Source of the DNA: Bacteroidia bacterium
Lineage (GTDB): Bacteria; Bacteroidota; Bacteroidia; Bacteroidales; VadinHA17
Assembly (NCBI GenBank): GCA_026391215.1
Contig: JAPLDX010000066.1
Coordinates: 1-54,461, forward strand
DNA length: 54,461 nt
Reading direction: 5' to 3'
Part shown: positions 17,059-34,835 of the stretch, piece after piece
How the letters are laid out: each line of letters begins with the position of its first letter
Position numbering within the stretch: the first letter of the stretch is position 1
Program-made: the position numbers and the translations under genes
Notes under the pieces: generated by a model
Seen by the model: the letters and a program-made list of their open reading frames with translations, nothing else
Told to the model about the DNA's origin: nothing
Database searches by the model: none

Positions 17059-17076
17059 GCCATATTATACTTAATC

Positions 17077-18078: not shown

Positions 18079-18097
18079 TTGATTCAGCAACAAGAAA

Positions 18098-19161: not shown

Positions 19162-20199
19162 ATGACAAGTAAAATTGTAACTTTTGGAGAGATTATGCTC
19201 CGTCTCGCAACACCTGAGCATCAGCGGTTTTCACAGGTGACCTCCTATTGCGCTTCATTTGGAGGAGGAGAAGCCAATGTTGCAGTCTCCCTGGCTAATT
19301 TCGGCCTGAACGCAGAATTTGTGACTCGTCTTCCCGATAACGATCTTGGCAATTCAGTCATAATGGACCTGAGGAAACATGGAGTCGGAACGAATTATAT
19401 TATGAGGGGAGGTAAAAGACTTGGGATCTATTTTCTTGAGACCGGATCTGTATCAAGGCCAAGCAAGGTAATTTATGACAGGGCTCATTCATCAATTGCA
19501 GATATTATTCCCGGTATGATTGACTGGGATAATGTCTTTAAAGAAACACACTGGTTTCACTGGACAGGCATCACTCCTGCAATTTCAAAGGGTGCAGCTG
19601 CAGTTTGTCAGGAAGCAATAGTTGCAGCTAAAAAGCATGGCATTATTATTTCCTGCGACCTTAACTACAGGAAAAACCTGTGGAAATGGGGGAAAAGCGC
19701 TTCCGATGTGATGCCGGCGATGGTGAAGGAATGCGACATTATTCTTGGCAATGAAGAAGATGCCGAAAAAGTATTTGGAATTAAACCGGAAGGCGCTGAT
19801 GTCTTCCGCGGAGATGTGAAAGCAGCAAGTTATGAATCAGTCTGCAGGAAGCTTAAAAAACAATTTCCCCAGGCAAAGAAAATAATCATTACCCTGCGCG
19901 GCTCTATAAGCGCTGACCATAACACCTGGTCGGGTGTGCTTTATGACGGGAAGGAACTCCTTGAAGCTCCTGTTTACCAGATCACCCATATTGTTGACAG
20001 GGTAGGCGGGGGCGACTCATTCATGGCAGGACTGATCTATGGATTGTTAGCCTATCCTGATGATGATCAGAAAACCCTTAATTTTGCCGTCGCAGCCTCA
20101 TGCCTTAAACATACCATTCATGGCGATTTCAACCTTGTAACCGTGCAGGAGGTTGAACAGCTGATGAAAGGCGACACATCGGGAAGAGTAATGCGTTGA
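19162..20199 (+). CDS. kdgK: 2-keto-3-deoxygluconate kinase (PfkB family)
   Basis: TFGEIMLRL, FGGGEANVAVSLA, VIYDRAHS, DLNYRKNLW, VDRVGGGDSF. Confidence 0.88.
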   Translation: MTSKIVTFGEIMLRLATPEHQRFSQVTSYCASFGGGEANVAVSLANFGLNAEFVTRLPDNDLGNSVIMDLRKHGVGTNYIMRGGKRLGIYFLETGSVSRPSKVIYDRAHSSIADIIPGMIDWDNVFKETHWFHWTGITPAISKGAAAVCQEAIVAAKKHGIIISCDLNYRKNLWKWGKSASDVMPAMVKECDIILGNEEDAEKVFGIKPEGADVFRGDVKAASYESVCRKLKKQFPQAKKIIITLRGSISADHNTWSGVLYDGKELLEAPVYQITHIVDRVGGGDSFMAGLIYGLLAYPDDDQKTLNFAVAASCLKHTIHGDFNLVTVQEVEQLMKGDTSGRVMR

Positions 20200-20209
20200 T
20201 ACTTACCAG

Positions 20210-21397
20210 ATGAAAAAATCCATATTAATACCGGCCATCTTATGCATGATTGCTTTTCCATCATGCAGAAAGCAGGAGCCAATTGAAAAGATTATTGATG
20301 AATCGCTCGCTTTCTCTGTAAAGCAATACACCCTGATGACTGAGGTTATGAAGGATATGCCTGACCTTCTGCCAAGGACAATTGATTCAGCAGGTGCCCT
20401 TGTAACTGCCGGATCAGGATGGTGGACCTCAGGATTTTTCCCGGGAAGTTTGTGGTACCTGTACGAGTACTCAAATGATGAAAAGATAAAAGATGCCGCT
20501 ATGCTGATGACATCAAGAATAGAAAAAGAGAAAGACAACACCGGCACACATGATCTTGGATTTATGCTTTACAACAGCTTTGGTAACGGGTTCAGGCTCA
20601 CTGGCAATGAGAGTTATGAAGAAATACTGCTTGCCGGTGCAAAGGCATTATCAACACGTTACCGCCCGGTCATCGGATGTATCCAGTCATGGGGAACCAG
20701 CAGGAACTGGCAATGCCCGGTGATAATTGATAACATGATGAACCTCGAATTCCTGATGTGGGCATTTAGTATTTCAGGTGATTCCAGCTACTATAAGATC
20801 TGTGTCTCTCATGCAGACACGACATTAAAAAACCATTTCCGGTCTGATTATAGTTCTTATCATGTGGTTTCATATGACACTATTACAGGAAAAGTGCAGG
20901 TAAAGCAGACAGCCCAGGGTGCGGCTGATGAATCTGTATGGTCCCGCGGACAGGCCTGGGGTCTTTATGGATACACTGTAATGTACAGGGAGACAGGTCT
21001 GGACAGGTATCTCAACCAGGCAGTGCATATCGCCGATTTTATGATCAGCCACCCGAATATGCCCGAAGATATGATACCGTACTGGGATTTTAACGCTCCT
21101 GAAATTCCGGATGCAAAGAGAGATGCATCTGCAGGTGCCATAATGGCCTCAGCTCTTATTGAACTGAGCAGAATGACCGACACTGTATCCGGAAGGAAAT
21201 ACCTCCAGGTTGCTGAAAAACAGCTGAGGACCCTTGCCTCATCCGCATACCGCGCAGAATATGGAGAAAATGGCAATTTTATCCTGAAACATAGTGTTGG
21301 TTCAATCCCGGGAAAGAGTGAAGTGGATGTCCCTCTGACTTATGCTGACTACTATTTTATAGAGGCTCTGGGGAGATACAGGAATCTGCTGAATTAG
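20210..21397 (+). CDS. GH88 unsaturated glucuronyl hydrolase, lipoprotein
   Basis: WTSGFFPG, HDLGFM, IIDNMMNLE, WSRGQAWG, DASAGAI, YADYYFIEAL; lipobox FPSC. Confidence 0.93.
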   Translation: MKKSILIPAILCMIAFPSCRKQEPIEKIIDESLAFSVKQYTLMTEVMKDMPDLLPRTIDSAGALVTAGSGWWTSGFFPGSLWYLYEYSNDEKIKDAAMLMTSRIEKEKDNTGTHDLGFMLYNSFGNGFRLTGNESYEEILLAGAKALSTRYRPVIGCIQSWGTSRNWQCPVIIDNMMNLEFLMWAFSISGDSSYYKICVSHADTTLKNHFRSDYSSYHVVSYDTITGKVQVKQTAQGAADESVWSRGQAWGLYGYTVMYRETGLDRYLNQAVHIADFMISHPNMPEDMIPYWDFNAPEIPDAKRDASAGAIMASALIELSRMTDTVSGRKYLQVAEKQLRTLASSAYRAEYGENGNFILKHSVGSIPGKSEVDVPLTYADYYFIEALGRYRNLLN

Positions 21398-22428
21398 AAA
21401 TCTATCATCGCCTTCATAACTCCGTTGCTGTATCCGGCTACAAGGTCGAACGCCTCTTTTGTGAGGACGAACGGGAAACGGTGAGTTATCATGCTGCTTA
21501 TATTGATCTTTCCTTCTTTCATCATTTCGAGAGCTGGCCCGACGCAATCCACTTCGCGTCTTACAAAGAATACTGATATTTCCTTTCGGCGGGTGCTGTC
21601 AGCACCTAATGTCCATCGATCGGTTTCCGGAATACCGACAACTATCAGCTTTCCTCCCGGTTTCAGGATATCTACTGCCTGGTCGAGTGCCTCCTGCTGA
21701 CCGCAGCATTCAAATACGGCATCAAGGCCAAGGGGCTCTTCCTTCTTTATCCATTCAGCAATATTCTTCTTCAGCGGATTCCCGGTAAAAGTCATGCTTT
21801 CCTTACCGGCTATAACAAGACGTTCATCTATCTTATCGGTAACATAAATATTTTTAACGCTCTGGGCTTTTGCTGCAAGGAGAACACTCATCCCTATCGG
21901 ACCGAATCCAAGTATAGCGATCCGGGCTCTTCTTATATCACCTGCTTTTTTTACGGAATAGATCCCGATGGAAAGCGGTTCTGAAATGGATCCGTGATCC
22001 TTGGTAAGCCCTCCTGTGAGAGGGAAACAACTCTCTTCAGGCATCACAATATATTCCGACAGGCAGCCTTCAGCCTGCCCCGGACATCCTAAAAATCTGA
22101 GTTTCCTGCATGTATGAGGTCTTCCTGCAAGACACTGATCGCATTCATGACATGATATTGCCGGTTCAATTGCTACTGAATCGCCCGGCTTCACCCTCTT
22201 TACCCCGGAACCTGTCTCCACCACAACACCTGCGCCTTCGTGACCGACTGTAAATGGATACCTGACAACCTGAGATCCGATATTTCCCCGGGTATAATAA
22301 TGAATGTCCGATCCGCATACCCCGACCACCGATATCCTTATTTTCACGTCCATCTGATTCGAAATAACCGGATCCGGAACCTCTTTCATCTCCATTTGCC
22401 GTATCCCTGTAAGCATCATCGCTTTCAT
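21394..22428 (-). CDS. Zn-dependent sorbitol/L-iditol-type dehydrogenase
   Basis: CGSDIHYY, GHE, structural-Zn CHECDQC..C, GFGPIG. Confidence 0.9.
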   Translation of the reverse strand: MKAMMLTGIRQMEMKEVPDPVISNQMDVKIRISVVGVCGSDIHYYTRGNIGSQVVRYPFTVGHEGAGVVVETGSGVKRVKPGDSVAIEPAISCHECDQCLAGRPHTCRKLRFLGCPGQAEGCLSEYIVMPEESCFPLTGGLTKDHGSISEPLSIGIYSVKKAGDIRRARIAILGFGPIGMSVLLAAKAQSVKNIYVTDKIDERLVIAGKESMTFTGNPLKKNIAEWIKKEEPLGLDAVFECCGQQEALDQAVDILKPGGKLIVVGIPETDRWTLGADSTRRKEISVFFVRREVDCVGPALEMMKEGKINISSMITHRFPFVLTKEAFDLVAGYSNGVMKAMIDF

Positions 22429-22588: not shown

Positions 22589-23323
22589 ATGAGAAATATC
22601 TACGGCATAGGAGAAACCCTTCTTGATATAATCTTTAAGAACAGTCAGCCTCAGGCAGCCAAGCCCGGAGGGGCAATGCTAAACAGCACTGTTTCGCTGG
22701 GACGTATAGCATTGCCCGTTTATCTTATCAGCGAATATGCCGATGATGACGTAGGAAGCATGATTGACAAGTTTTTGCATGAAAACGGTGTGGGGACAAC
22801 CTATGTGGATCATTACAAGGATGGCAAGACGGCGCTGGCGATAGCTGTACTTAATGAAAAGAATGATGCCAGCTACACATTTTATAAAAACTATCCGTCA
22901 AAGAGACTCGAAATGACTTTCCCTGTGATAAGGAAGGATGATATAGTATTATGCGGATCTATTTATGCCATAACCACAGAAATCGCACACACACCTGACG
23001 AAGCCTGGAAAATAGTCAGCAAATACTGTCCCTGCCTGGTTTATACTGCCAGCTCAGAGAGTGTCCATGTCAGGACTGTCTCTTTCTCGGGCAGATTCCC
23101 TGTAAAGAAAATAAAGGCAGTAAGCACAATAGGTGCCGGAGATAATTTCAATGCCGGGATGATCAAGGCAGTTTACCGCAACCACATCACCAGGGACCAG
23201 CTTGTTAAAATAGGAGAGGAGGAGTGGTCAAAGATCGTTGCTTCCGGGGTTGATTTTGCAAGTGATGTCTGCATGAGTTATGAAAACTATATATCTCAGG
23301 AATTTGCCAGAAAAGTTAAGTAG
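22589..23323 (+). pseudogene. PfkB-family (fructokinase-like) kinase with an apparent in-frame internal deletion
   Basis: GIGETLLD, PGGAMLN and STIGAGDNF are present, but the protein is only 244 aa and lacks the central D-P-N-x-R and K-x-S/N-x-E segment. Confidence 0.6.
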
Positions 23324-23340: not shown

Positions 23341-23435
23341 ACCCCCCAAGCCCCCCTAAAGGGGGGTTGAAACCCATTGACATCTAAATCATTATTTTAT
23401 TGGTTTATAGCCCCCCTTCAGGGGGGATGGGGGGT
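23341..23435. repeat. Inverted pair of REP-like palindromes (copies B and C), BIME/REPIN-like
   Basis: 23341..23374 ACCCCCCAAGCCCCCCTAAAGGGGGGTTGAAACC and 23402..23435 GGTTTATAGCCCCCCTTCAGGGGGGATGGGGGGT, lying between convergent genes. Confidence 0.88.
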
Positions 23436-24697
23436 CAGATAGGTTTTGCGTTTGCCAGCAAGTATCTCTCTGCTTCAACCGACCAGATGTAGCCGTTTTT
23501 TGAAACAATTTTATGCAATTCTGCGTATAATATATTATGGGCTCCCATTTCCCCGAGCTTATAGAGCGAAATCAACGGCATTGAGATATTTGTATAAATA
23601 AGCTTTTTACCTCCTGGGATATGAGGCAGGTTAAGCGTCGTATCTGCCACAGCATCAAGCCCGCCTATATGAGTTATCATTACAGCCGGATTTATCCTGC
23701 CTTCACCCATAAGCTTCAGCGATTCACGCATATCATCAGTATTTCCTCCCGATGTTCCTGTAATATGGGTAAATGCATAATGGACATTATAGAAATTAAA
23801 TTCTGCCCTGAACTCAGGATTTGTTGGTCCGGCAAAGAAATTCAGACACCCGTCAAATCCGAGGATGGCATCACCCTGTTCCACAACCTGCTTGACCGGG
23901 GCAAAGATAAAAACATCATCAAATCCGCTTCCGCCTGTAAGATCACGCAGATGCTTCACGGGATCAGTCACCTTTGAAGTATTTATATAGATCAGCTTAA
24001 TGCCTTCTTTTTCAGCCCGTTCAGGAGGGAAAAGACAGGCTGCCCTTGAGAGCCGGTTGTTATCAATATCTGTAACTGCGATCATAGAAGGCTTACGGTC
24101 CTGGTGAATGGCATAATCTATAGCTCCGAGTCCCATGGGTCCCACACCCGCAAGTATTGCCATTCTGCCTCCCCGCCTGATGCCCATCTCGTGCTTATAT
24201 GTTCCGGGCGGTACATGGTAGCTGGCATGAAAAGCGCCGACAATACATGACATGGGTTCAGAAAGCGAGGCCGGGAACCATCCTTCTCCATCATATGGTA
24301 AAAGGCAATCGGCTTCCATTACGATATCCGATATGATTATGTGTGTTGCATCTCCGCCGATGTAGCGGTATGAATAACCTGGCGCATTAAGGGTTCCGGT
24401 GTGGGCCATTGCAGGCTGAATAGTGAATTTCTGTCCTTCACGGAACTTATGTTTCCATTTGCTTCCCACGTTTAGTAATACTCCGGCAAATTCATGACCG
24501 ATGATTGTCGGATTGATATTTATATCATCAGGAATACGCTTATGTTCAGCGCCCTGCAGGGCTGCCTTGTACGATGACATGCAGATGCTGTCGGAGATAA
24601 CCCGGGCCAGGATCTCATCTTCCTTCATCTCCGGAAGATCAAACTCCTCAAGTCTCAGGTCTTTCTTCCCGTATATTCTTACTGCTTTTGTCTTCAT
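23435..24697 (-). CDS. Zn-binding dehydrogenase, L-sorbose-1-phosphate reductase (SorE)-like
   Basis: MKTKAVRIYGKKDLRLEEFDLP, SDSICMSSYK, GHEFAG, GVGPMG, NFYNVHY, HIGGLDA. Start set at ATG 24697. Confidence 0.85.
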   Translation of the reverse strand: MKTKAVRIYGKKDLRLEEFDLPEMKEDEILARVISDSICMSSYKAALQGAEHKRIPDDININPTIIGHEFAGVLLNVGSKWKHKFREGQKFTIQPAMAHTGTLNAPGYSYRYIGGDATHIIISDIVMEADCLLPYDGEGWFPASLSEPMSCIVGAFHASYHVPPGTYKHEMGIRRGGRMAILAGVGPMGLGAIDYAIHQDRKPSMIAVTDIDNNRLSRAACLFPPERAEKEGIKLIYINTSKVTDPVKHLRDLTGGSGFDDVFIFAPVKQVVEQGDAILGFDGCLNFFAGPTNPEFRAEFNFYNVHYAFTHITGTSGGNTDDMRESLKLMGEGRINPAVMITHIGGLDAVADTTLNLPHIPGGKKLIYTNISMPLISLYKLGEMGAHNILYAELHKIVSKNGYIWSVEAERYLLANAKPI

Positions 24698-24707
24698 TTC
24701 ATTTCTT

Positions 24708-24743
24708 TTTCTCCCTTTCTCCCCCTCACGCCCTCTCCCCCTC
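24708..24743. repeat. Degenerate pyrimidine-rich 8-mer tandem repeat
   Basis: TTTCTCCC TTTCTCCC CCTCACGC CCTCTCCC CCTC, in the intercistronic gap. Confidence 0.55.
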
Positions 24744-24750
24744 CATTTTC

Positions 24751-26730
24751 TCATCCCAACATCACCTGTCCCCCTGTCACCGGAACTGCCTGCCCTGTTT
24801 CGTATTCCTGGTCAATGATATAAAGAAGAGCTTTCACTACATCATCAAGTCTGCAGCCACGTTTCATTGGTACCTGTTCTTCATAATATTTTCTTACATC
24901 TTCAATCGTTTTGGCACCAGGAACCTTCCCAGTATTCAGATACTGGACAAACAATCCGTTTTGTGGATCAGACCACAGCGGCCCTTCATAGAAATTTCCC
25001 GGGCATATGGAATTGACTTTTATTCTGTAGGGAGCCAGCTCCATGGCAAAGGACTGAGTGAGCCCTATGCCCCCGAACTTTGCTCCGGAATAGGCAAAGT
25101 TGCGGTTGCTGCCGCGAAGCCCCGATTTGGAATTGATCTGGATGATGTCGGTAAAATAACCCTGTTTCTCAAGGTTCTGAAGCTTCATAACCTCAGACGC
25201 ATACTTTGTACAATAATAATAACCGTTGTAATTAATGCCTGTGACCTTCGAAAATACGTCCGGTTCCATCTCATCCAGACCACCAGCTTTCAAAATACCC
25301 GCATTGCTGATCATGATATCAAGGCCTCCGAATTCGCTTACTGTCGAAGCTATCATCTCCCTGACCGATTCAGGATCTGAAACGTCAGTCCTGACAAAGA
25401 TTGCCTTGCCTGATGATTTTTCAGTCATCAGTCTGGATACCAGGTTATTTCCTGCCTCCTCGTTCAGATCAGCGATCACAACATTGATGCTTAGCCTGCA
25501 GAGAGCTTCAGCTATTCCTGCGCCAAATCCCTGTGCTCCTCCTGTAACGATGGCAATTTTATTTGCATGTCTGTTGTTGCTGTTATCCTGGGTTGTGATC
25601 TTTCTCCTGTAATTCTCAACCTCCCACTGATCAATAAAAGCAACCTGCTCGGGTGAAAGGAATTTTATACCCCCGCACTGCAAGGCATAATGGCAAATCC
25701 TGATAAGATCTTCATAAACATCAAGGGTAGTCTCTGCTGCTGAGCAGGTCTCGCCGATGGCAAAGACGCCCATATCCTTTATTATAACTACTTTGGGAAG
25801 ATACCCGTACTCATTCATGAAGCGAGGGAGCTGATTTTTAAAAGAATCTATGATCTTTTCAGCAGTTGATGAATGCTCAATATATAGAAATCTTGACTTA
25901 CAGTAGACAATTATATCCGGAATAAGAGGAAGTGAGATTTTGTGGAATTCCTGCTGATTAGTATAGTACTTGGAAATCAATGTATTATGCCTGTATCTTA
26001 TAACTGTGGACTTCCCGTCAGAAAGCAGGATACGGATTACCGGCAGCACCTTATGCAGCAATGGATTATATGGAAGCTGTTCGTTATCTGAAATTGGTGT
26101 GATCTGTTTTTCGATGGTTGAAATAATTTCCTTATAAATGTCTTTGATCTCTGATGTTGAATCTGCTCCGGCGAAAACACCATGGTTCTCAAGGAAGATG
26201 ATCCTGGGATCGCCCTGGAATTTTTCCCTGTAAATCAATATCTCCTTTTCAAGCTTTTTGAAAAGAGTATAACCCGGATCAGTATATTGAACAAAAAGTA
26301 CCTTTTCACCGAAATGCTGGTTAATGAAGCTCTTTGCACTCCTGCTGCACAGGACACCATTGACAAGCGAAGGATGGAGGTGAACAACAAATTTGTATCG
26401 TATCAGTTCATGCAAGGAAGTCTCAACCGATGGACGTATGTTCTGAGATGGATCAATGATACATTTAAAGAGATCTATTTTTACCTGTTCTTCTCTTTTT
26501 ACCTGGTCTTCGTCATAGCTTTTTGCTGCTATCACATGCAGTTTTTCCCTGTTTAAGGCAACCAGTCCCGCTTCTGTCAGTTCTGCCAGAGGGTATCCGC
26601 TTGCCTTTATCCAGATGGTACTGTTATCCTTGAAAGATGTATTCCCTCCTCCGGCAATCACGAAATCTTTTTTACTGCCATAAAACCTTGATATTTCAAT
26701 CAGATCTTTAATTTCCTGATTCATAGTCAC
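24751..26730 (-). CDS. Bifunctional class II aldolase-like / SDR (sorbitol-6-phosphate dehydrogenase SrlD-like) fusion
   Basis: N-half: GGGNTSFK, RPSVETSLH, HLHP, LENHG. C-half: VTGGAQGFG, NAG, INSKSG, YSGAKFGGIGLTQS. Confidence 0.88.
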   Translation of the reverse strand: MTMNQEIKDLIEISRFYGSKKDFVIAGGGNTSFKDNSTIWIKASGYPLAELTEAGLVALNREKLHVIAAKSYDEDQVKREEQVKIDLFKCIIDPSQNIRPSVETSLHELIRYKFVVHLHPSLVNGVLCSRSAKSFINQHFGEKVLFVQYTDPGYTLFKKLEKEILIYREKFQGDPRIIFLENHGVFAGADSTSEIKDIYKEIISTIEKQITPISDNEQLPYNPLLHKVLPVIRILLSDGKSTVIRYRHNTLISKYYTNQQEFHKISLPLIPDIIVYCKSRFLYIEHSSTAEKIIDSFKNQLPRFMNEYGYLPKVVIIKDMGVFAIGETCSAAETTLDVYEDLIRICHYALQCGGIKFLSPEQVAFIDQWEVENYRRKITTQDNSNNRHANKIAIVTGGAQGFGAGIAEALCRLSINVVIADLNEEAGNNLVSRLMTEKSSGKAIFVRTDVSDPESVREMIASTVSEFGGLDIMISNAGILKAGGLDEMEPDVFSKVTGINYNGYYYCTKYASEVMKLQNLEKQGYFTDIIQINSKSGLRGSNRNFAYSGAKFGGIGLTQSFAMELAPYRIKVNSICPGNFYEGPLWSDPQNGLFVQYLNTGKVPGAKTIEDVRKYYEEQVPMKRGCRLDDVVKALLYIIDQEYETGQAVPVTGGQVMLG

Positions 26731-27964
26731 TTCTGTTTAAAAAGTACTCAATTACCATCCGTCCAAGCTTTGCCAGCCCGTTTTTTTGATCCAGGCTCAG
26801 GGTACCATCGTCAAGAACATACCCCTGCCGGCTTTGCGCCCTCAGGTACTGGTGCGCAGCAATAATGCAGATCCCTTCCCATGCAATTTTCTTAAGTGAT
26901 TCATCAAGCGGTACAGAACCTCTTGATGAAACAGTCAAAGGGATAAGCTCGGGTGTATTGTGCTCTGTGCCGAATGTTATTACAAAACCTTTTTTATGAA
27001 AGAACTCAACAAAATCTTTCAGAATAGCCTGGTCATTTCTGCCGGGTATCAGCTCAATACAGCCTATCCCAAGTGAAGACAGGGAGGAATAAAGCTTTTC
27101 GGCATCATTTTCAAATTCAGTAAATTTTCCAGACGGATCATCAAGAAGAACAGGATAACAGGGTATTCCTCCTGTATTGACAATTATCCTGATGATCTTT
27201 TTCAGGTTCAGGAAAGAGTTTTCGTCTTCCTTGACAAATGCTGCACCGCCGGCTTTTAAAAGGTTTGACCGGATCTCGTTTTCAAGGGCAGCCGGATTGC
27301 TCAGACCTGTTTTTGTCTTTTTCACTCCATAAAGAGTCTCAATAAATCCGATCTGTTCCTCATCTGTACTGAAATTCTTCATAGCAATGACCCTGACAGC
27401 TTTAGCCAGATGACGCTCACGAACCAGCTCACGGGCATATTTATTTTTTATCTCTTCAAAAGTGAATGTAAGCGAAGGATTTACAGGCTCAATGAGGTTG
27501 TTGAGATTATCAATCATTGTCCTGACCTGGTTCTGGCTCTCATTAATTACTTTATTCAGACGTCTTCTATCCCGCCACCCTGGTTTGAAGGGATAGTCCA
27601 GTCCTTTGCCGCAGAAGTATATCCTTCCCGGATTATTAGGGTCATTGATTCTTATACCTGCCTTTTGTTCTTTCTTCAGCAAGCCTATGAATTCAATATT
27701 GAATAGTGGAAAAATATTGTTATTGAGGCACCCAAAGTAAAATGGATCATAACCATCGGTCACAAAAAAATCGTTTATGCCCAGGGCTGCTATTCCTTCA
27801 TCTTTTGCCATGGAGAAAACAGCCTCAAGATTTTCAAAGGAGCTGAATGAATATGGAGTATGAATATGTCCGTTGGCTTCCCTGTAAACCGGAACTTTGG
27901 CGCCATTCATAGTTTTGATCAGCTCCTCATAAGATGGAAAACCGGCAAGGAAGTATTTTGTCAT
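26708..27964 (-). CDS. PHP-domain metallo-phosphoesterase-like protein
   Basis: NGHIHTPYS (HxH), GINDF, NIEF, FGTEHN; overlaps the start of the downstream gene. Confidence 0.78.
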   Translation of the reverse strand: MTKYFLAGFPSYEELIKTMNGAKVPVYREANGHIHTPYSFSSFENLEAVFSMAKDEGIAALGINDFFVTDGYDPFYFGCLNNNIFPLFNIEFIGLLKKEQKAGIRINDPNNPGRIYFCGKGLDYPFKPGWRDRRRLNKVINESQNQVRTMIDNLNNLIEPVNPSLTFTFEEIKNKYARELVRERHLAKAVRVIAMKNFSTDEEQIGFIETLYGVKKTKTGLSNPAALENEIRSNLLKAGGAAFVKEDENSFLNLKKIIRIIVNTGGIPCYPVLLDDPSGKFTEFENDAEKLYSSLSSLGIGCIELIPGRNDQAILKDFVEFFHKKGFVITFGTEHNTPELIPLTVSSRGSVPLDESLKKIAWEGICIIAAHQYLRAQSRQGYVLDDGTLSLDQKNGLAKLGRMVIEYFLNRSDYESGN

Positions 27965-27982
27965 CGAATAAGATTTGGTTTA

Positions 27983-28621
27983 TTACCTGAATAGCCTATC
28001 AATTTCGCGTATTCTTGAAGGACTAAGCATGCTTTTCTTCCCTTTCATCTCAACAACCAATGTCATTTTTGCTGCATTTTCAAGGACTTCCAGTTTATCA
28101 AATGCTTTTAACAGATCCGTACCGGTAGTGAGTATGCCATGGTTTTCAAGCAGAAGGATATCGGCGTCTTTTGAATTTTCAGCAGCAACATCAGCAAGTT
28201 CCTGCGATCCCATTAACTCATAGGGTACGAACCTCGGTGTTCCGCATATTGCCCTGGCTTCAGCTGTAAGACTGGTATTGATTTCGCATTTCATTGCTGT
28301 GAACGATGATGCAAATACCGGGTGGGCATGGACGATGGCAGATACATCGCTTCTCTTTTTATAAATGTTAAGATGAAGGGTAAATTCAATTGACGGCTTA
28401 AGGTCAGGAGTCAGGTTTTCACCAAGAATTGACATTATACCAACCTCCTTCCATTTCATGCATCCTTTGTCAGTTGCAGATGGAGTTATCACAATTCTAT
28501 CTTCAGATACCCGGAGACTAATATTTCCGCCAGAGGTAGTCGTAAGCCCCAGGCGATAAAGACGTTTCATAAAGCGGGCAACCTCTTTCCGCTGCTTTTT
28601 AAATTTCTGATTCTTCTTCAT
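27983..28621 (-). CDS. Class II aldolase/adducin-family protein (FucA-like)
   Basis: SGGNIS, ITPS, KPSIE, HAHP, LLENHG. Confidence 0.92.
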   Translation of the reverse strand: MKKNQKFKKQRKEVARFMKRLYRLGLTTTSGGNISLRVSEDRIVITPSATDKGCMKWKEVGIMSILGENLTPDLKPSIEFTLHLNIYKKRSDVSAIVHAHPVFASSFTAMKCEINTSLTAEARAICGTPRFVPYELMGSQELADVAAENSKDADILLLENHGILTTGTDLLKAFDKLEVLENAAKMTLVVEMKGKKSMLSPSRIREIDRLFR

Positions 28622-28688
28622 GTACTTAATTATATGTAAAGATATTAAAAGGAAGATTGGATTTCATATGTTATTAATCTTCGTAAAA

Positions 28689-31157
28689 CTATACTCCCTC
28701 TTTATTTAGCTTTATAATTTTATCATCCGAGAAGTCGCGTTTTGGCTCATGCCCCTTAAGCGGAACGATCTTTTCATGAATTGCATCCAGTATCCAATCA
28801 GGCTGAGGGAAGAAATACTCTTCCATTTCAAAAGCAGGAATGATCCAGTTCCGTGAGCCGACGACCACAGGAGGAGCGTCAAGATAGTCGAAAGCCAGTT
28901 CGGTGATTGTCTGGGCCATCTCTTTCAGGAATGATCCCCTGGATGAGGCATCACTGGCAAGGATGATCCTCCCGGTCTTCTTAACTGATTCAATGACAGG
29001 CTGATAATTGAACGGTACCAGTGTCCTGGCATCAATCACCTCTGCATTCAGACCATAAACCTGCTTAAGAGTATCAGCAGCTTTAATTGCCGGGTATAAC
29101 GTAGCGCCTATTGTAAGTATTGTTATATCATTTCCTGAACGTTTAATATCTGGTTCGCCAATAGGTATCTCATAATATCCTTCAGGTACGCCCTCTGAAT
29201 GGAACATCTCTCCGACATCATAAATCCTCTGGCTCTCAAAGAAGATAACCGGGTCAGTTCCCTGTAATGCTGCATTCATCAATCCTTTGGCATCATAGGG
29301 TGTTGCCGGGAATACGACTTTCAATCCAGGTATATGAGCAGTCAGTGACGACCAGTCCTGTGAATGCTGGGCGCCATATTTTGAACCGACTGAAACCCTT
29401 ATTACCACCGGCATCTTTATTAAATTACCGCTCATAGCCTGCCACTTGGGGAGCTGGTTGAAGACTTCATCTCCTGATCTTCCAAGAAAATCGCAGTACA
29501 TGATCTCAGCAATAACTCTTCCGCCGCACATCCCGTAACCGATGGCAGTCCCTACTATTGCACCTTCAGAAATAGGGGAATTGAACAGGCGGTGATAGGG
29601 GAGAGCTTCTGTCAGTCCGCGGTATACTGCAAATGCTCCGCCCCAATCGCGGTTCTCCTCACCCCAGGCAGCAAGAGTGGGATCTTTGTAGAAACGGTCA
29701 ATGACAGCTTCAAAGATCCCGTCACGAAGCTGGAATAATTTTGCTTTGGAAACGGGCTTTCCATCTTTATCCTTAAAGAATCTCTCCTTATTCTTTATTG
29801 ATTTTACCCGGGGATTCTCTTCAAGAGGCAAAAGTACTTCAGGAATGGCTTCTTCCATTTTGATGGCCGATCCGTTTGAGAACATCATTTTACCAATAGC
29901 GTCAGGATCAATGTCAAGATCCAGCCGGGGTGAAATATGATCATCGACTGTAAGCTTCAGAATATGTGAAATCAGTTCAGCAATGTCATGTCTTATATCG
30001 TCAAGATGGTCCTGCTTTTCTATTCCTGCGCTGACCAGTGAATTACCAAATGAAATTATTGAATCCTCCTTTTGCCAGGCCTCTATTTCTTCCTTCGATC
30101 TGTACGATGAAGCATCGGATGGTGAATGCCCGCTAATTCTGTAAGTAAGTGTATCAAGAAGGACAGGTCCTTTCTTTTCGCTGAGAAGCTTCTTCTTGCG
30201 TTTGAATGCATCAATGACAGCAAGAGGGTTGTATCCGTCAACACGTTCTGCATGCATCATTTCGGGATTGACACCTGCCCCTATGCGTGCCAGAATATTA
30301 AAGCCCATGGTCTCGCCCATAGTCTGTCCGCCCATGCCATACAGGTTATTCATAAAGTTGAATATCAAAGGCAATCCGCCTCTGTATTCACCATCCCAGA
30401 GTGTTTTGTATTGATCCATGGTTGCAAAGCAAATACCCTCCCATACCGGGCCGCAACCCAGGGAGGCGTCGCCGATATTACATACCACAATACCAGGCTT
30501 CCTGTTTATTTTCTTATACAGTGCGGCACCGACTGAAATATCTCCTGATCCGCCTACAATAGCATTATTGGGATAAATTCCAAAAGGAGTGAAGAAGGCA
30601 TGCATTGAACCGCCCAAACCTTTATTAAAACCGTTTTCCCTGGCAAAGATCTCAGCCAGGGCTCCATATAACAGGAAATTTATTGCCAGTTCGCTGATAT
30701 TTCCCTGGAATCCTTTTTCGACAACTTTGAGGGTGCTTCCGCTGAAGTAATTGCTCATTATTGAATAGAGATCGTCATCGTTCAGCTTGTTGATTGCCGA
30801 TAATCCCTTTGCCAGTATCTCTCCATGACTCCGGTGTGATCCGAAGATATAATCGTCCACATCAAGATTATAAGCCATCCCTACTGCAGAGGCTTCCTGT
30901 CCGATTGAAAGATGAGCCGGTCCGGGATGATTATATTTTATCCCGTTATATTCATTTGTTGTTTTAATAAGGTTGAGCATGGTCTCAAATTCCCGGATAA
31001 TTGCCATGTCACGGAATATTCTCAGGAGATCATCATTGCTGAAATTCTTCTTTTCATCAGCGATGGATTTATTGTACTGATTTACAGGTATTTTCCCGAA
31101 TTCAATGAATTGCGCTTTCCGTACAATTTTTGGGTTAATGTTTTGACATTTTGGCAT
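28689..31157 (-). CDS. ThDP-dependent 2-oxoacid/acetoin dehydrogenase-type E1, fused alpha+beta
   Basis: HLSIGQEA, SHRSHG, GGSMH, GDA...NN ThDP motif, RISGHSPSD; beta part has NSPISE, EIMYCDF, GAQHSQ. Confidence 0.93.
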   Translation of the reverse strand: MPKCQNINPKIVRKAQFIEFGKIPVNQYNKSIADEKKNFSNDDLLRIFRDMAIIREFETMLNLIKTTNEYNGIKYNHPGPAHLSIGQEASAVGMAYNLDVDDYIFGSHRSHGEILAKGLSAINKLNDDDLYSIMSNYFSGSTLKVVEKGFQGNISELAINFLLYGALAEIFARENGFNKGLGGSMHAFFTPFGIYPNNAIVGGSGDISVGAALYKKINRKPGIVVCNIGDASLGCGPVWEGICFATMDQYKTLWDGEYRGGLPLIFNFMNNLYGMGGQTMGETMGFNILARIGAGVNPEMMHAERVDGYNPLAVIDAFKRKKKLLSEKKGPVLLDTLTYRISGHSPSDASSYRSKEEIEAWQKEDSIISFGNSLVSAGIEKQDHLDDIRHDIAELISHILKLTVDDHISPRLDLDIDPDAIGKMMFSNGSAIKMEEAIPEVLLPLEENPRVKSIKNKERFFKDKDGKPVSKAKLFQLRDGIFEAVIDRFYKDPTLAAWGEENRDWGGAFAVYRGLTEALPYHRLFNSPISEGAIVGTAIGYGMCGGRVIAEIMYCDFLGRSGDEVFNQLPKWQAMSGNLIKMPVVIRVSVGSKYGAQHSQDWSSLTAHIPGLKVVFPATPYDAKGLMNAALQGTDPVIFFESQRIYDVGEMFHSEGVPEGYYEIPIGEPDIKRSGNDITILTIGATLYPAIKAADTLKQVYGLNAEVIDARTLVPFNYQPVIESVKKTGRIILASDASSRGSFLKEMAQTITELAFDYLDAPPVVVGSRNWIIPAFEMEEYFFPQPDWILDAIHEKIVPLKGHEPKRDFSDDKIIKLNKEGV

Positions 31158-31209
31158 ATGAAATTATCTTATAGTCAGTAGTTTATATTGTCTTTTTTCC
31201 TTTTCTGAT

Positions 31210-31236
31210 AACCCCCCTTCAGGGGGGGTGGGGGGT
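31210..31236. repeat. REP-like C6/G6 palindrome, copy D
   Basis: AACCCCCCTTCAGGGGGGGTGGGGGGT, abutting the E2 stop codon. Confidence 0.85.
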
Positions 31237-32462
31237 CATTTATATTCAAATTTCTCTATCTGCTCTTTTATCTCTCTCAGGAACAACGTTGCCGGACCTC
31301 CGTCGATAGCCCTGTGGTCATAAGTGAGCGACAATCCCATATATGGTACAAATCCAAACGTGTTGTTGCCCAGATCGATAGGCCTGTTAATAATAGAACA
31401 GACTCCAAGGATAGCTACCTGCGGCAGGTTGATAACCGGTGTGAACATTTCCACGCCGTAGTTTCCAAGATTAGATACTGTGAATGATGCCGCCGTGCTT
31501 TTGATAAGTTCAGGATCTATATTGCCCTTGCGGCATGAATCTGCAGTTGATTTCAGCTCCCGGGACAATTGTACAAGGTCCATTTCTCCCGCATTCCTTA
31601 CCGCCGGTACCATGAGTCCGCGCGGAGTATCCACAGCTAATCCAAGATGAACTTTATTGAATGTTCTGATTGATTCACCCTGGAAATGGCTGTTGGCTTC
31701 AGGGAATTTCTCCAGGGCCCGTATCACGCACCAGCAGATCATATCGTTAAGCTTAATATCCTGCCTTGCATTTCCGGAGGCCAACCCTTCCTTGATTTTA
31801 CGTCTTGCTTCAAGAAGCTTGCGGACGTCAGCGCTCATATGATGTGTCAGCTGGGCTGAGCTTTGAAGTGAAGTATGCATGGCTTTTGCTATCAGCCTGC
31901 GGACATTGCTCAAAGGCAGTTCTGAATAATTCTTACCGTCTGAAGAGACCATTTTATCAAATTGAACAGCTCCGGATGAAGCTTTTTCAATATCGGTTAG
32001 TACAATCCTCCCGTTTGGTCCTGATCCCTGGAGATTGGTATAATTTATTCCTTTTCCCTTTGCAAGAATCCTGGCCCTTGGGGATATCCTGATCCTTGAA
32101 TCTGAAGGGGAGGCAGCTATCAGTACCTTTCCGGTTTCATGTCCGGAACCCTGTTCAGGTTTTGTTGCCGGACCGGATTCTTTTACCAGGGTGCTTCCCG
32201 GGTACAGGGATTTGATGTCTTCTCCGGGCTGGCCGATGGCTGCAACGTTTATAAGTACGGGTACTTCAGCACCTTCATCGAAGAATGTATCAAGGAGGAT
32301 GCCTTCACCCGGAGATTCCATTTCGAATGCTGCCTTATCGGTTTCATAAGAAAAGAGAATGTCTCCTGTGGAAACCTTGTCTCCCTTGTTTTTAAACCAT
32401 CGGGTGATGATGCAGGTTTCTACGGACTGTCCCTGCTTTGGCATTGTAACTGGAATGGCCAT
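31236..32462 (-). CDS. Dihydrolipoamide acyltransferase (E2)
   Basis: Lipoyl motif ETDKA; subunit-binding domain ISPRAR...GSGPNGRI; catalytic TVSNLG and DHRAIDG. Confidence 0.95.
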   Translation of the reverse strand: MAIPVTMPKQGQSVETCIITRWFKNKGDKVSTGDILFSYETDKAAFEMESPGEGILLDTFFDEGAEVPVLINVAAIGQPGEDIKSLYPGSTLVKESGPATKPEQGSGHETGKVLIAASPSDSRIRISPRARILAKGKGINYTNLQGSGPNGRIVLTDIEKASSGAVQFDKMVSSDGKNYSELPLSNVRRLIAKAMHTSLQSSAQLTHHMSADVRKLLEARRKIKEGLASGNARQDIKLNDMICWCVIRALEKFPEANSHFQGESIRTFNKVHLGLAVDTPRGLMVPAVRNAGEMDLVQLSRELKSTADSCRKGNIDPELIKSTAASFTVSNLGNYGVEMFTPVINLPQVAILGVCSIINRPIDLGNNTFGFVPYMGLSLTYDHRAIDGGPATLFLREIKEQIEKFEYK

Positions 32463-32463
32463 G

Positions 32464-32533
32464 TTAGTGGTTAGTGGTTGGTGGTTGGTGGTTGGTGGTT
32501 GGTGGTTGGTGGTTGGTGGTTGGTGGTTGGTGG
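32464..32533. repeat. Heptamer tandem repeat (TTAGTGG)2(TTGGTGG)8
   Basis: Ten units counted directly, ending 1 bp upstream of the E2 start codon. Confidence 0.97.
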
Positions 32534-32602
32534 TTTACTTGTTATTATATGTAGAATGGAATTTATTTCATAGAAAGATATCTTATTGTAAATCAGGAAT
32601 TA

Positions 32603-32610
32603 CAAAAATA
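32603..32610 (-). promoter_or_regulatory. Bacteroidota -7 promoter element for the E2/E1 operon
   Basis: The minus strand reads TATTTTTG, matching TAnnTTTG. Confidence 0.55.
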
Positions 32611-32618
32611 AAATAAAA

Positions 32619-32636
32619 TACTTGTATTTACAAGTA
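32619..32636. promoter_or_regulatory. Candidate GntR/HutC operator palindrome
   Basis: TACTTGTA-TT-TACAAGTA has perfect 8-bp arms and is close to the HutC-subfamily GT-N-TA-N-AC core. A weaker copy lies at 32536..32553. Confidence 0.7.
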
Positions 32637-32670
32637 AAATATGATATATTTACAAAAAATATTTCCTGTC

Positions 32671-33387
32671 ATGACGCCATCAAGGAATTTGCCTCAGCAC
32701 AGAAGGCTATACGAGATTCTCAGGAAGCATATTACTGAAGGGATCTACAAAGAAGGCGACCTGCTTCCATCTGAAAATGAATTGTGTCAGCTATACGGTA
32801 TGACAAGGCCGACAGTGAGGCAGTCTCTAAGCACACTGGCCAATGACGGATATATAACGAAACACCAGGGCAAGGGCAGCATAGTGCATCATCTTCCGCG
32901 GGAAATAGGTATCCTGTCTGTATCGGGAACCACATCTGCAGTCGGGAACAGGAACCTTAAAACACGGATAATCGTTAAGCCTGTTCTCATTTCATGGAAC
33001 AATGACTTCATGTTTCCCCTGTCTCAACTGGAGAAGGAGTCCGGATGCATATACATGGAGAGACTCCGCCTGCTCGACGACATTCCAATATTTTATGATA
33101 TAAGCTATATTGCCAATATCAATCTCCCAAGAATAACATCAAGGCAGTTTGAAAACAGATCGTTATTCAAGATTCTCAGGGAACATTATCATATCGAAAT
33201 AAAAGGAGGGGAGCAGAGAATAAAAGCCATACCCGCATCTTTAAAAACAAGCTCTCTCCTTCATCTTAAGAAAAACCAGCCTGTACTGCATCTTGAAAGA
33301 AAGATGGTTACTAATGTCAATGGTCTGTTCCTGTATTCGTCAATATATTGCAATACTGAGAAATATTCAATTTTCGGAAGATTCTGA
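32671..33387 (+). CDS. GntR-family regulator, HutC/UTRA type
   Basis: LLPSENELCQLYGMTRPTVRQSL..L..G HTH plus UTRA-like C-terminus. ATG 32671 preferred; alternative start 32641. Confidence 0.93.
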   Translation: MTPSRNLPQHRRLYEILRKHITEGIYKEGDLLPSENELCQLYGMTRPTVRQSLSTLANDGYITKHQGKGSIVHHLPREIGILSVSGTTSAVGNRNLKTRIIVKPVLISWNNDFMFPLSQLEKESGCIYMERLRLLDDIPIFYDISYIANINLPRITSRQFENRSLFKILREHYHIEIKGGEQRIKAIPASLKTSSLLHLKKNQPVLHLERKMVTNVNGLFLYSSIYCNTEKYSIFGRF

Positions 33388-33506: not shown

Positions 33507-34835
33507 ATGAACAAACAGAAAAAGTTATGGTCACGACGCCAGTTCCTGACCGCTGCAGCAGCAGGTGCGGCTGGCGTAGCAATTCTCCCCGGTCTTACCG
33601 GTTGCAAGGCAAAACCAAAAGACGACGACATCATTCGCCTGGGATTCATTGGTCCGGGACAACAGTCAATGTTCTTGCTCAATGGATTTATGCAGGTAAA
33701 GGGAGTCCAGGCAATCGCCGGATGTGATGTCTACGGGATCAAAAGGAAACGTTTTGAGAAACGGGTAAATGCTTTTTATGCCAAGACAGGAACAAAAGCA
33801 AGCGTTACAACTTTCGAAAAGTATCAGGATCTTTTAGCAATAGAGGAAATTGATGCTGTTGTCATTGCTGTTCCCGATCATTCACATGCCATGATTGCCA
33901 TTGCAGCATTAAAGGCAGGCAAGGATGTTTACCTCGAAAAACCTATGACGCTCACCATCAGGGAAGGACAGGAGCTTAAAAAAGTTGTCCGTGAAACAGG
34001 AAGGGTATTTGGTCTGGGAAGCCAGCAGCGTTCCAGCGCTGAATTCCAGCATGCTGTTAAACTGGTACAATCAGGTTCTCTTGGGAAGATTACCCTGGTA
34101 AATGCTTATGTTGGAGCACCACCTATACCATATAACCTGCCCGAAGAACCAATACCTGCTGATCTTAACTGGGATCTGTGGCTTGGCCCGCTTCCGGCTA
34201 CGATTCATTACAACAGTCAGCTTGATCCTCCAATAACTCTGGATCCCGAGCAAAATGAACAATTCTGGGGAGGATGGAGATGGTATAAGCCTATGGGCGG
34301 AGGATTTACAACTGACTGGGGTGCCCACATGTTTGATATTGCACAGTGGGGACTTGGCATGGATAAGAGCGGACCGGTGGAAATTTCTCCTATCGGAGAT
34401 GGTACTGAGTTTATTATGTGGAAATATGCAAATGGTGTTGTAATGACATCAGAACCATTCAATGAAGAGAAGACAAAAGGTGTGAAATTCATCGGGGAAA
34501 ATGGCTGGATTGAGGTATCAAGAGGCTTCTTTAACGCTTCTGATCCGAAATTCATGCCTGCCGAACCAATAGCAGAAGATCCGAATGTGCCTTATGAAAC
34601 GAGAATACCTCACCAGGTTAACTTCATTGAGGCTGTAAGATCGCGCCTGGACCCTGTCGTCCCTGTTGAGGTTGGTCATAGCAGCTGTACTGTTTGTACG
34701 CTTGGGAATATTGCCTGCGAACTGAAGAGAACCATTAAATGGGATCCGGCAACCGAGACTTTTGTTGATGATACCGATGGTGCAGCAACAAAACTTCTTC
34801 AATATGAATACCGTGCACCCTGGAAACTGATCTGA
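33507..34835 (+). CDS. Tat-exported Gfo/Idh/MocA oxidoreductase, probable lipoprotein
   Basis: SRRQFL Tat motif, LTGC, DAVVIAVPDH, YLEKP, GSQQRS, WDLWLGP, DWGAHMFD. Confidence 0.92.
   Translation: MNKQKKLWSRRQFLTAAAAGAAGVAILPGLTGCKAKPKDDDIIRLGFIGPGQQSMFLLNGFMQVKGVQAIAGCDVYGIKRKRFEKRVNAFYAKTGTKASVTTFEKYQDLLAIEEIDAVVIAVPDHSHAMIAIAALKAGKDVYLEKPMTLTIREGQELKKVVRETGRVFGLGSQQRSSAEFQHAVKLVQSGSLGKITLVNAYVGAPPIPYNLPEEPIPADLNWDLWLGPLPATIHYNSQLDPPITLDPEQNEQFWGGWRWYKPMGGGFTTDWGAHMFDIAQWGLGMDKSGPVEISPIGDGTEFIMWKYANGVVMTSEPFNEEKTKGVKFIGENGWIEVSRGFFNASDPKFMPAEPIAEDPNVPYETRIPHQVNFIEAVRSRLDPVVPVEVGHSSCTVCTLGNIACELKRTIKWDPATETFVDDTDGAATKLLQYEYRAPWKLI

Follow-up and report, generated by a model that had tools for sequence, protein, structure and literature searches.

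Why should the genes of a 2-oxoacid dehydrogenase-type complex head an operon of sugar enzymes? The question is raised by a six-gene operon on a contig of 54,461 nucleotides (JAPLDX010000066.1 of assembly GCA_026391215.1; the whole contig is here denoted the window) from a member of the Bacteroidales, VadinHA17 lineage. In this operon, genes encoding the E2 and E1 components of a thiamine diphosphate (ThDP)- and lipoyl-dependent complex precede genes for two aldolase-fold proteins, a PHP-fold protein and dehydrogenases. Among the major sugars of pectin, mucus and algal polymers are fucose and rhamnose, half of whose carbon is lost as 1,2-propanediol in the textbook anaerobic route. We give a probability of roughly 0.55 to the reading that the operon is a GntR-repressed lower pathway of L-fucose and L-rhamnose catabolism in anaerobic Bacteroidales, in which an acetoin dehydrogenase-type E1/E2 complex would cleave a ketol and form an acyl-CoA, most probably acetyl-CoA, from the methyl end of the sugar. 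A lipoamide complex recruited into a deoxy-sugar operon would have a fair chance of representing a new mode of sugar cleavage. A full-text literature search found no description of the operon, of its E1 subfamily or of its PHP family; nor did it find a characterised pathway combining these enzymes, in agreement with an earlier note made from the letters of this DNA, which knew of none.

The six open reading frames follow one another in the same orientation on the minus strand (23435-32462), separated, from the E2 side, by gaps of 78, 67 and 18 nt and then by overlaps of 23 and 4 nt. With Pfam and NCBIfam models we recovered every frame and domain that the earlier note had assigned to this operon, divergent from a GntR gene with a palindrome. 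The first frame encodes a dihydrolipoamide acyltransferase (E2, 408 amino acids, 31236-32462) with lipoyl, E3-binding and 2-oxoacid_dh catalytic domains, followed by a ThDP enzyme with fused E1 alpha and beta parts (822 amino acids, 28689-31157; Pfam E1_dh, Transket_pyr and Transketolase_C). Pfam and NCBIfam place the next product in the class II aldolase fold, as a FucA-like protein (212 amino acids, 27983-28621). It is followed by a PHP-fold, metal-dependent protein of an unnamed family (418 amino acids, 26708-27964), recognised by a marginal Pfam PHP match, an AlphaFold model and Foldseek. The fifth frame fuses a RhaE-like aldolase fold to a SrlD-like short-chain dehydrogenase/reductase (SDR) (659 amino acids, 24751-26730; Pfam Aldolase_II and SDR, NCBIfam), and the sixth encodes a long Zn-dependent medium-chain dehydrogenase/reductase (MDR) of the polyol/ketose reductase type (439 amino acids, 23435-24754; Pfam, NCBIfam and zinc-ligand alignment). 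A sigma-70 and terminator scan, whose models do not cover Bacteroidota promoters, detected no convincing minus-strand terminator inside the operon. The operon holds neither an E3 nor a transporter gene, as had been pointed out before; the single lpd gene of the genome sits unlinked on contig C38.

Divergent from the E2 gene is the gene of a GntR/HutC-type regulator with a UTRA effector domain (32641-33387, plus strand; Pfam, NCBIfam, synteny). The protein matches PF00392 with 63 bits and PF07702 (UTRA) with 85 bits, and both HutC-subfamily features were found. The spacer between the two genes contains a perfect palindrome, ACTTGTATTTACAAGT (32620-32635), made of the arms ACTTGTA and TACAAGT around TT. 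Of 23 GntR-E2 spacers from related loci, 21 contain the core of this palindrome, TTGTAAATACAA (or TTGTAATTACAA), and we regard the palindrome as a candidate operator of the GntR/HutC repressor, with the sequence ACTTGTAAATACAAGT. The same spacer carries a heptamer tandem repeat, GTTGGTG (7-nt unit, 10.4 copies, 98% matches; 32463-32535), which ends directly at the E2 start codon. We compared the region with the Logan contigs of four DNA runs, of which X1 is the probable source run; no RNA run was listed as carrying the operon. Contigs of runs X1-X3 end at or restart beside this repeat, and the summed word depth there is 31-153 versus about 6-14 alongside, indicating that the repeat is present on many contigs. 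In 4 of 25 related loci the sequence upstream of E2 likewise contains tandem repeats, which are shorter and built of other units.

The arrangement recurs in other genomes. A scan of species-representative genomes yielded 8 loci (Rikenellaceae and Bacteroidales metagenome-assembled genomes), and from a metagenome scan with an 11-row PHP alignment we took the best 80 loci, all with 59-79% PHP identity. Gene order was the same in the 8 genome loci and the best 80 metagenome loci. With the counts restricted to loci whose sequence extends far enough on the side in question, E1 was found in 35 of 37 related loci, the long MDR in 36 of 36 and the gene for the FucA-like aldolase in 52 of 55; the aldolase/SDR fusion was present in 48 of 48 and adjacent to the PHP gene in every one of them. 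The operon genes are thus co-conserved, which supports the earlier interpretation, and the operon family is widespread in uncultured Bacteroidales, beyond the window. Three accessory genes, none of them in the window, accompany it in related loci: a HAD-IIA phosphatase (33/43), a HAD-IA phosphatase (27/43) and a YdjG-like, methylglyoxal-reductase-like aldo-keto reductase (15/43). The HAD-IA gene follows the FucA-like gene in 27 of 43 loci, with a stop/start overlap in locus L013. A second Zn-MDR gene, polyol dehydrogenase-like and usually beside a kinase gene, was detected in 21 of 27 loci; the copy in the window encodes 344 amino acids (21394-22428, minus strand; Pfam, NCBIfam). Loci L012 (1599-6840) and L007 (3749-8997), and besides them 10-13 of the 80 metagenome loci, have three genes of an RND efflux system (outer-membrane factor, HlyD-type adaptor, AcrB-type pump) inserted between E1 and HAD-IIA. 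In L012 (16920-20687) and in 8-11 of the 80, the second MDR is followed by genes for an RraA-like aldolase, a long enolase-superfamily dehydratase and an MFS transporter, a set that may supply the same system through a non-phosphorylative sugar-acid branch.

The kinase is a fructokinase-like PfkB protein encoded on the plus strand (22589-23323; Pfam, NCBIfam and comparison with relatives). A PfkB kinase was found in all 32 related loci that reach its position, and compared with these relatives the window copy has an in-frame gap of 61 residues, the codons missing at position 22984. One X1 contig of 1198 bases carries 183 additional bases exactly at position 22984. This contig and the intact kinase of the relatives indicate that the gap is most likely an assembly or strain artefact and that the kinase is part of the system. 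The earlier statement that the operon lacks an intact kinase is therefore correct for the window as given but probably not as biology. The spacer between the kinase and the end of the operon (23341-23436) behaves as a dispersed repeat, with a depth of 43-113 versus about 4-20 in the adjacent bins; each of the four runs shows numerous loose ends and joints there.

Could the E1/E2 complex be an ordinary pyruvate dehydrogenase (PDH) or branched-chain 2-oxoacid dehydrogenase (BCKDH) whose place in a sugar operon is accidental? The E2 domains are canonical: its one lipoyl domain carries the motif ETDKA at K43, and the catalytic motif DHRAIDG lies at 382-388. E1 has a ThDP motif and a YRxxGHSxSD-type motif, its relatives carry the JGI label '2-oxoisovalerate dehydrogenase E1 component', and the operon E1 (alpha-beta) and E2 are the only matches to themselves in a genome that is 98.9% complete, all of which would suit a housekeeping enzyme. 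The same genome, however, encodes pyruvate:ferredoxin oxidoreductase (PFOR, 1912 bits), and pyruvate oxidation is therefore not in need of the operon complex. The genome also encodes GcvH, lipA, a lipoyl transferase and one lpd above cut-off (C38); as GcvH points to a glycine cleavage system, this lpd presumably serves both. Both components miss the NCBIfam equivalog cut-offs: E1 scored 226.5 versus 321 for PDH E1 beta and 179.6 versus 393.85 for PDH E1 alpha, and E2 scored 254.4 versus 445 for PDH E2 and 219 versus 449 for SucB. Some E1 match was detected in 234 of the 301 Bacteroidota genomes sampled. Among the 300 genomes other than that of the window, a full-length orthologue (75% identity) was found only in one, denoted G181; the remaining matches in the phylum sample have at most 42% identity and leave residues 1-156 uncovered, and a stretch of ~165 residues at the N-terminus lies outside ordinary E1 alpha profiles. 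The linkage of E1 to the PHP gene is strict, since the PHP gene was detected in 2 of 401 sampled genomes, the two that hold this E1. Together with the sugar-type GntR/UTRA repressor, the conserved candidate operator and E1 relatives on accessory plasmids beside an AcoC-type E2 (see below), these results make an ordinary dehydrogenase most improbable. As far as sequence and context tell, E1 belongs to a distinct sugar-linked subfamily, and the expectation that it would stand apart from PDH/BCKDH was upheld.

Relatives of the fused E1 occur outside the Bacteroidota. A tblastn search with E1 against 72,556 plasmids detected fused proteins of 51-54% identity over 96-100% of the length on 16 plasmid records among the matches listed, with 52-54% for the relatives on Rhizobium and Agrobacterium plasmids; the next best plasmid matches have at most 35% identity, and the PHP protein has no match in the 72,556 plasmids. 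On Rhizobium johnstonii pRL8 and Agrobacterium pAt15955 alike, E1 is followed by genes for a lipoyl protein (78 and 77 amino acids, respectively) and an alpha/beta hydrolase. For both partners AcoC is the top NCBIfam match (hydrolase, 153 and 159 bits; lipoyl protein, 63 and 70 bits); the division of AcoC into two proteins keeps the scores under the cut-off of 307. The genes around them include sugar ABC transporters, a fructokinase-like PfkB, a FucU-like mutarotase, a psicose-3-epimerase-like gene, a mannitol-dehydrogenase-family gene and SorC/DeoR regulators. The Agrobacterium stretch additionally holds lipA, a D-arabinitol-dehydrogenase-like gene and a xylulokinase, and no aldolase was found among the annotated genes of either E1 stretch. 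Judged by these sugar-cluster settings and AcoC partners, the E1 subfamily is tied to the use of sugars or polyols in two phyla, one of which pairs it with an acetoin-type E2. We dropped the idea that the Rhizobium and Bacteroidales PfkB kinases are specific orthologues, because their identity is 24%. The part of the pRL8 transcriptome paper available to us (PMC3333776) does not mention the E1 cluster.

Which sugar, then, is used? In G181, the genes for E2, E1, PHP, SDR and the long MDR form one operon with rhaM on one flank; on the other flank are GntR, a separate aldolase-fold gene, rhamnulokinase (540.6 bits versus a cut-off of 527.95), RhaA, RhaT and an alpha-L-rhamnosidase. The product of the aldolase-fold gene is 41.5% identical to residues 1-378 of the window fusion. 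In 4 of the 80 metagenome loci fucI adjoins the operon, and a FucK-like FGGY kinase gene stands beside the regulator in L050, L103 and L110. The earlier guess of a deoxy sugar is supported by these rhamnose and fucose genes. The genome of the window itself has both upper pathways: contig C73 carries rhaT-rhaM-rhaA and an FGGY kinase with a rhamnosidase, and contig C101 carries fucI-fucK divergent from lipA-lipB, neither with an aldolase gene. Other class II aldolase-fold genes in this genome are an AraD on contig C1 (346.9 bits versus a cut-off of 257) and a weaker, unassigned Aldolase_II match on contig C70. A query with E. coli FucO gave a weak partial match alone. On C101 (26166-31800; also L116, 8143-13797) fucK, a DUF5362 gene and fucI are transcribed away from lipA and a gene for a lipoyl transferase of the LipB/LplA type, which places lipoylation genes beside fucose genes; lipA is found in the Agrobacterium E1/AcoC cluster too, and its proximity to fucose genes and to E1/AcoC may be a coincidence. 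On the 3' side of the rhamnose genes of C73 are genes for VTC-domain, DUF4956 and DUF2490 proteins (L032, 5925-8458).

The sugar might also be a different one, such as another pectin-derived or rare sugar or polyol, with E1/E2 cleaving an ordinary ketose phosphate to glycolyl-CoA and an aldose phosphate. Within 10 kb, rha genes were found in 0 of the 80 metagenome loci, and fucI in the 4 mentioned. Neighbouring genes include a GH88/GH105-like protein, KDG kinase, the RraA-like aldolase, the enolase-family dehydratase and an apiosidase-like gene, and the D-arabinitol-dehydrogenase-like gene and xylulokinase of Agrobacterium would also suit such a substrate. Alpha-L-fucosidase, GH78 rhamnosidase, GH28, pectate lyase and the apiosidase-like gene each occur in single loci. 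Recognisable upper-pathway genes, however, stand beside the module only for rhamnose (G181) and fucose (the L103 group), and a methyl ketol would yield hydroxyethyl-ThDP, as acetoin and pyruvate do. We know of no precedent for glycolyl transfer by such a complex, and consider this explanation very unlikely.

The two aldolase-fold proteins are central to the strongest challenge to our reading. The FucA-like protein is the product of the only FucA-like gene in its genome. Its best FucA models scored 123.6 versus a cut-off of 250 and 118.2 versus 264, and 0 of 14 control genomes pass NF005302. Both aldolase-fold proteins keep the columns of FucA Asn29, Ser71, Glu73, His92, His94 and His155, though not that of Tyr113; in FucA we take Glu73, His92, His94 and His155 to have catalytic or zinc-binding roles, and the columns of these four are invariant in our alignment. 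The fusion scored 240.1 versus 567.75 with the RhaEW model TIGR02632 and 246.9 versus 931 with PRK08324, and is 24-25% identical to annotated plasmid RhaEW proteins. Its SDR domain (390-657) matches the SrlD model NF009050 with 234 bits versus a cut-off of 307, and the closest solved structure is the sorbitol-6-phosphate dehydrogenase SrlD 5o3z (E 8e-48). In the long MDR, the Cys and His-Glu zinc ligands align with those of ketose reductase 1e3j and sorbitol dehydrogenase 1pl6; the best NCBIfam match is IolM (63 bits, N-terminal). By its zinc ligands the long MDR is thus a polyol/ketose oxidoreductase and not a lactate dehydrogenase, and the label 'SorE-like' describes a likeness at family level only. 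The idea of polyol-phosphate redox chemistry in this operon fits both the SrlD-like SDR and the sorbitol-dehydrogenase-type ligands of the MDR.

An aldolase may therefore act first: the FucA-like and RhaE-like proteins would cleave fuculose or rhamnulose 1-phosphate to dihydroxyacetone phosphate (DHAP) and L-lactaldehyde, and the rest of the operon would dispose of the aldehyde without 1,2-propanediol. E1/E2 might convert lactaldehyde to lactoyl-CoA, or acetyl-CoA might be reached via lactate and pyruvate or via methylglyoxal. ThDP/lipoamide-dependent oxidation of an aldehyde is, to our knowledge, not known as a physiological reaction, which weighs against this explanation. The sole FucA-like gene stands in the operon, apart from fucI and fucK, neither aldolase-fold protein has lost its zinc ligands or its Glu73 equivalent, and the FucO query found little in this genome, all in favour of this explanation, as is the methylglyoxal-reductase-like aldo-keto reductase in 15 of 43 loci. 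The fusion has, moreover, the architecture of RhaEW (YuxG), which according to the part of PMC3870299 available to us converts rhamnulose 1-phosphate to DHAP and L-lactate and needs NAD+ even for DHAP release, some RhaEW regulons including lactate dehydrogenase genes. The operon contains no lactate dehydrogenase, however, and the identity to RhaEW is low (24-25%; 240 bits versus 567.75). Such a route would leave the polyol-type MDR, the SrlD-like SDR, the PHP protein, the kinase (32/32 loci) and the HAD phosphatases without a role; this genome already has PFOR available for pyruvate; and the alphaproteobacterial E1 clusters have no annotated aldolase. On balance we regard cleavage by an aldolase first as possible, though rather doubtful.

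The PHP protein scores 26.2 bits with Pfam PF02811, against a gathering cut-off of 26.4, and 41 of 62 aligned family members match PF02811 at E <=0.01; no sequence match was found in the PDB. A word-indexed search at E <=0.001 detected at least 4594 family proteins, all labelled hypothetical except one 'regulator of replication initiation timing', and 480 clusters at 50% identity match. Members were seen in Poribacteria and Chitinispirillaceae, and look-alike clusters are commonest in Planctomycetota and Chloroflexota. The AlphaFold model (pLDDT 96.1) has a large helical insert, and its top Foldseek hits are the phosphoesterases 3e0f, 9etk and 2yb1 (probability 1.0, TM about 0.7 on target, 12-13% identity). 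Near-invariant residues are H33 and H35 (HxH), E91, H185, E246, E285, E304, H335 and H371. In two natural fusions the family is joined to a mannitol-dehydrogenase-family domain (P0321) or to a RhaE-like aldolase fold (P0322; 29% identical over 388 residues to the window fusion). Because of these fusions to polyol-dehydrogenase-family or aldolase-fold domains, the substrate of the PHP protein is probably a sugar or polyol phosphate and not a nucleotide.

The neighbourhood of phosphoesterases and aldolase folds suggests a further route, modelled on methionine salvage, in which MtnB-type dehydratases and enolase-phosphatases occur as fusions. An aldolase-fold protein would dehydrate the 6-deoxyketohexose 1-phosphate to a 2,3-diketo-4-deoxy phosphate, PHP or HAD proteins would remove the phosphate, and E1/E2 would split the diketone or ketol into a C4 acyl-CoA (e.g. 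3-hydroxybutyryl-CoA) and a C2 fragment. The dehydration would erase the C4 difference between fucose and rhamnose. Each aldolase-fold gene adjoins a phosphoesterase gene, the fusion gene lying beside PHP in 48 of 48 loci and being fused to it in P0322, and the FucA-like gene preceding HAD-IA in 27 of 43, with the overlap in L013. The FucA-like protein does match MtnB models, with 81 and 75 bits over its N-terminal half only, but FucA models score higher, and its sequence does not distinguish a dehydratase from an aldolase. Roles for the SDR and MDR are vague in this scheme, which is drawn by analogy alone, and we consider it unlikely.

We return to the reading that E1/E2 cleaves a ketol in the lower fucose/rhamnose pathway. 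Lipoamide-dependent E1 enzymes act on 2-oxoacids, on alpha-ketols or diketones, or on aldehydes. In the proposed scheme, fucI-fucK (C101) and rhaT-rhaM-rhaA with the FGGY kinase (C73) would supply 6-deoxy-L-ketohexose 1-phosphates, and the unlinked Lpd would serve as partner of E1/E2. The variant that we favour, at clearly less than even odds, shifts the carbonyl group. The long MDR would reduce the C2 keto group of fuculose or rhamnulose 1-phosphate, in the manner of a sorbose-1-phosphate or ketose reductase, and the SrlD-like SDR would oxidise C5, giving a 1-deoxy-2-ketohexose 6-phosphate, a methyl ketol. E1 would then cleave the ketol to hydroxyethyl-ThDP and a tetrose 4-phosphate, and E2 would hand the acetyl group to CoA. 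Since the fucose and rhamnose ketoses differ only at C4, and C4 becomes the aldehyde carbon on cleavage, both sugars would give the same products. PfkB, the second MDR and, in some loci, the aldo-keto reductase could form a non-phosphorylated side entry, from the sugar through a deoxy-hexitol and a 1-deoxyketose to the 6-phosphate. The same sugar phosphates would be substrates of the two aldolase-fold proteins, in the role of epimerase, aldolase or dehydratase, and of the PHP protein, in that of phosphoesterase or isomerase.

The carbonyl shift would use both dehydrogenases as their families suggest, would explain why one module serves both sugars, and fits the alphaproteobacterial clusters without annotated aldolase. 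A number of points weigh against it and the reading to which it belongs. The FucA-like gene is the only one of its genome, although fucI and fucK are present, which favours an aldolase acting first; on a plain reading both aldolase-fold proteins look catalytically intact and are real aldolases; and the pair are the only candidates in the genome for the aldolase steps of fucose and rhamnose. In G181, the orientation of the aldolase-fold gene along with rhaB-rhaA suggests direct action on rhamnulose 1-phosphate. By stereochemical bookkeeping the tetrose formed would be D-threose or L-erythrose 4-phosphate, the wrong configuration, if no epimerase took part. The PHP protein and the HAD phosphatases (33/43 and 27/43 loci) have no necessary role in a carbonyl shift, and the window E2 has an ordinary catalytic domain and not the AcoC hydrolase fold. 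Finally, 54% identity between E1 proteins is no proof of the same substrate, and the low identity of the Rhizobium and Bacteroidales PfkB kinases does not help either. What we observed is compatible with an aldolase-first route and with a carbonyl shift alike, and the sequence supposed earlier, with redox epimerisation ahead of cleavage and oxidation of the fragment, is a hypothesis. We put forward only tentatively the general proposition that bacteria cleave 6-deoxyhexose phosphates without an aldolase, by a carbonyl shift and a lipoamide E1/E2 that yields acetyl-CoA and tetrose 4-phosphate, a related E1/AcoC form on rhizobial plasmids serving the use of polyols or deoxy sugars.

Several neighbours of the operon in the window were also characterised. 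On the 3' side of the regulator is a gene for a Gfo/Idh/MocA oxidoreductase with a twin-arginine signal (33507-34835, plus strand; Pfam, NCBIfam), found at any position in 13 of the 80 metagenome loci and also in L009, L011 and L013. Further along, an NYN-domain/OST-HTH (LOTUS) protein (37260-38027) is kept on the regulator side of the operon in L033, L048, L088, L106 and L108. Beyond the second MDR, the stretch 19162-21397 encodes a PfkB protein resembling KDG kinase (509 bits against the kinase portion of a KHG/KDPG aldolase-kinase fusion model) and a GH88/GH105-like protein that has DUF4995 at its N-terminus, which suggests use of unsaturated uronates from pectin or rhamnogalacturonan beside the operon. 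A separate minus-strand operon (14367-19000) encodes a sugar/ureide-type permease, an ADP-ribosylglycohydrolase-family protein, an inosine-uridine nucleoside hydrolase-like protein and a ribokinase-like PfkB; in L011, L034, L048, L087 and L111, some of it occurs in synteny with the deoxy-sugar operon. At 484-7881 lies a separate outer-membrane cluster with a TonB-dependent receptor-like protein with CarboxypepD_reg, two DUF4249 proteins and an MG2-domain protein. Two other pathways were considered and rejected. For sulfoquinovose, the ThDP enzyme encoded at 38884-40476 proved acetolactate-synthase-like (320 bits versus 509), its match to sulfoacetaldehyde acetyltransferase being weaker (169 bits); for inositol, the matches were limited to weak IolM and IolC-like ones.

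If the proposed pathway is true, anaerobes would gain ATP from the part of the sugar otherwise excreted as 1,2-propanediol, and the predicted fermentation of Bacteroidales in wetlands, sediments and digesters would change with respect to acetate, ATP yield and propanediol cross-feeding. A further mode of carbon-carbon bond cleavage in sugars would stand beside aldolases, transketolase and phosphoketolase, and sugar phosphates would join 2-oxoacids and acetoin as substrates of lipoamide complexes. A function would be assigned to a PHP-fold family with at least 480 sequence clusters, and the '2-oxoisovalerate dehydrogenase' label of hundreds of metagenome proteins would be corrected.

Compared with known systems, the operon combines familiar parts in an unfamiliar setting. 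Like PDH and BCKDH, its E2 has a lipoyl-lysine, an E3-binding (PSBD) domain and a catalytic DHRxxDG motif, and an E3 is available at an unlinked locus; it differs from them in the sub-equivalog scores of E1 and E2 and in being part of a sugar operon. With the TrpH/YciV-type PHP phosphoesterases (the 3',5'-bisphosphonucleotide phosphatase Cv1693, 2yb1; RNase AM, 9etk; BAD_1165, 3e0f) the operon PHP protein shares the barrel, the helical insert and the HxH motif, whereas its insert is larger and its conserved histidines are fewer.

The L-sorbose and galactitol routes employ the ketose-1-phosphate reductase SorE, the sorbitol-6-phosphate dehydrogenase SorD/SrlD and GatD. In a similar way, the Zn-MDR and SrlD-like SDR of the operon could shift the carbonyl group from C2 to C5 via a hexitol phosphate, but both score under the equivalog cut-offs, and the product would be a 1-deoxyketose phosphate, barred from glycolysis via a bisphosphate aldolase. 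RhaEW resembles the window fusion in the order of its domains, a class II aldolase fold with a zinc site followed by an SDR. The homologue of the N-terminal domain in G181, a separate gene, is located in a rha locus, whereas the window fusion and those of the 80 metagenome loci are not. Besides its distant relation to RhaEW (24-25% identity), the fusion is always coupled to PHP, the long MDR and E1/E2, a combination not reported for RhaEW loci.

The closest parallel is the acetoin system AcoA/AcoB/AcoC/AcoL. In the operon, E1 alpha and beta are fused and have an extra N-terminal stretch, and E2 has a 2-oxoacid_dh domain instead of the AcoC hydrolase, matching NF011457 in its lipoyl part only (64 bits versus 307). 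No Aco-specific E1 model was among the NCBIfam matches of the operon E1. The operon also differs in having no E3, AcoX or AcoR, and its setting is that of a sugar phosphate and not of butanediol or acetoin. Both systems, however, have a ThDP E1 of the alpha/beta type and a lipoyl carrier, and by analogy with acetoin cleavage the operon complex may split a methyl ketol into acetyl-CoA and an aldehyde.

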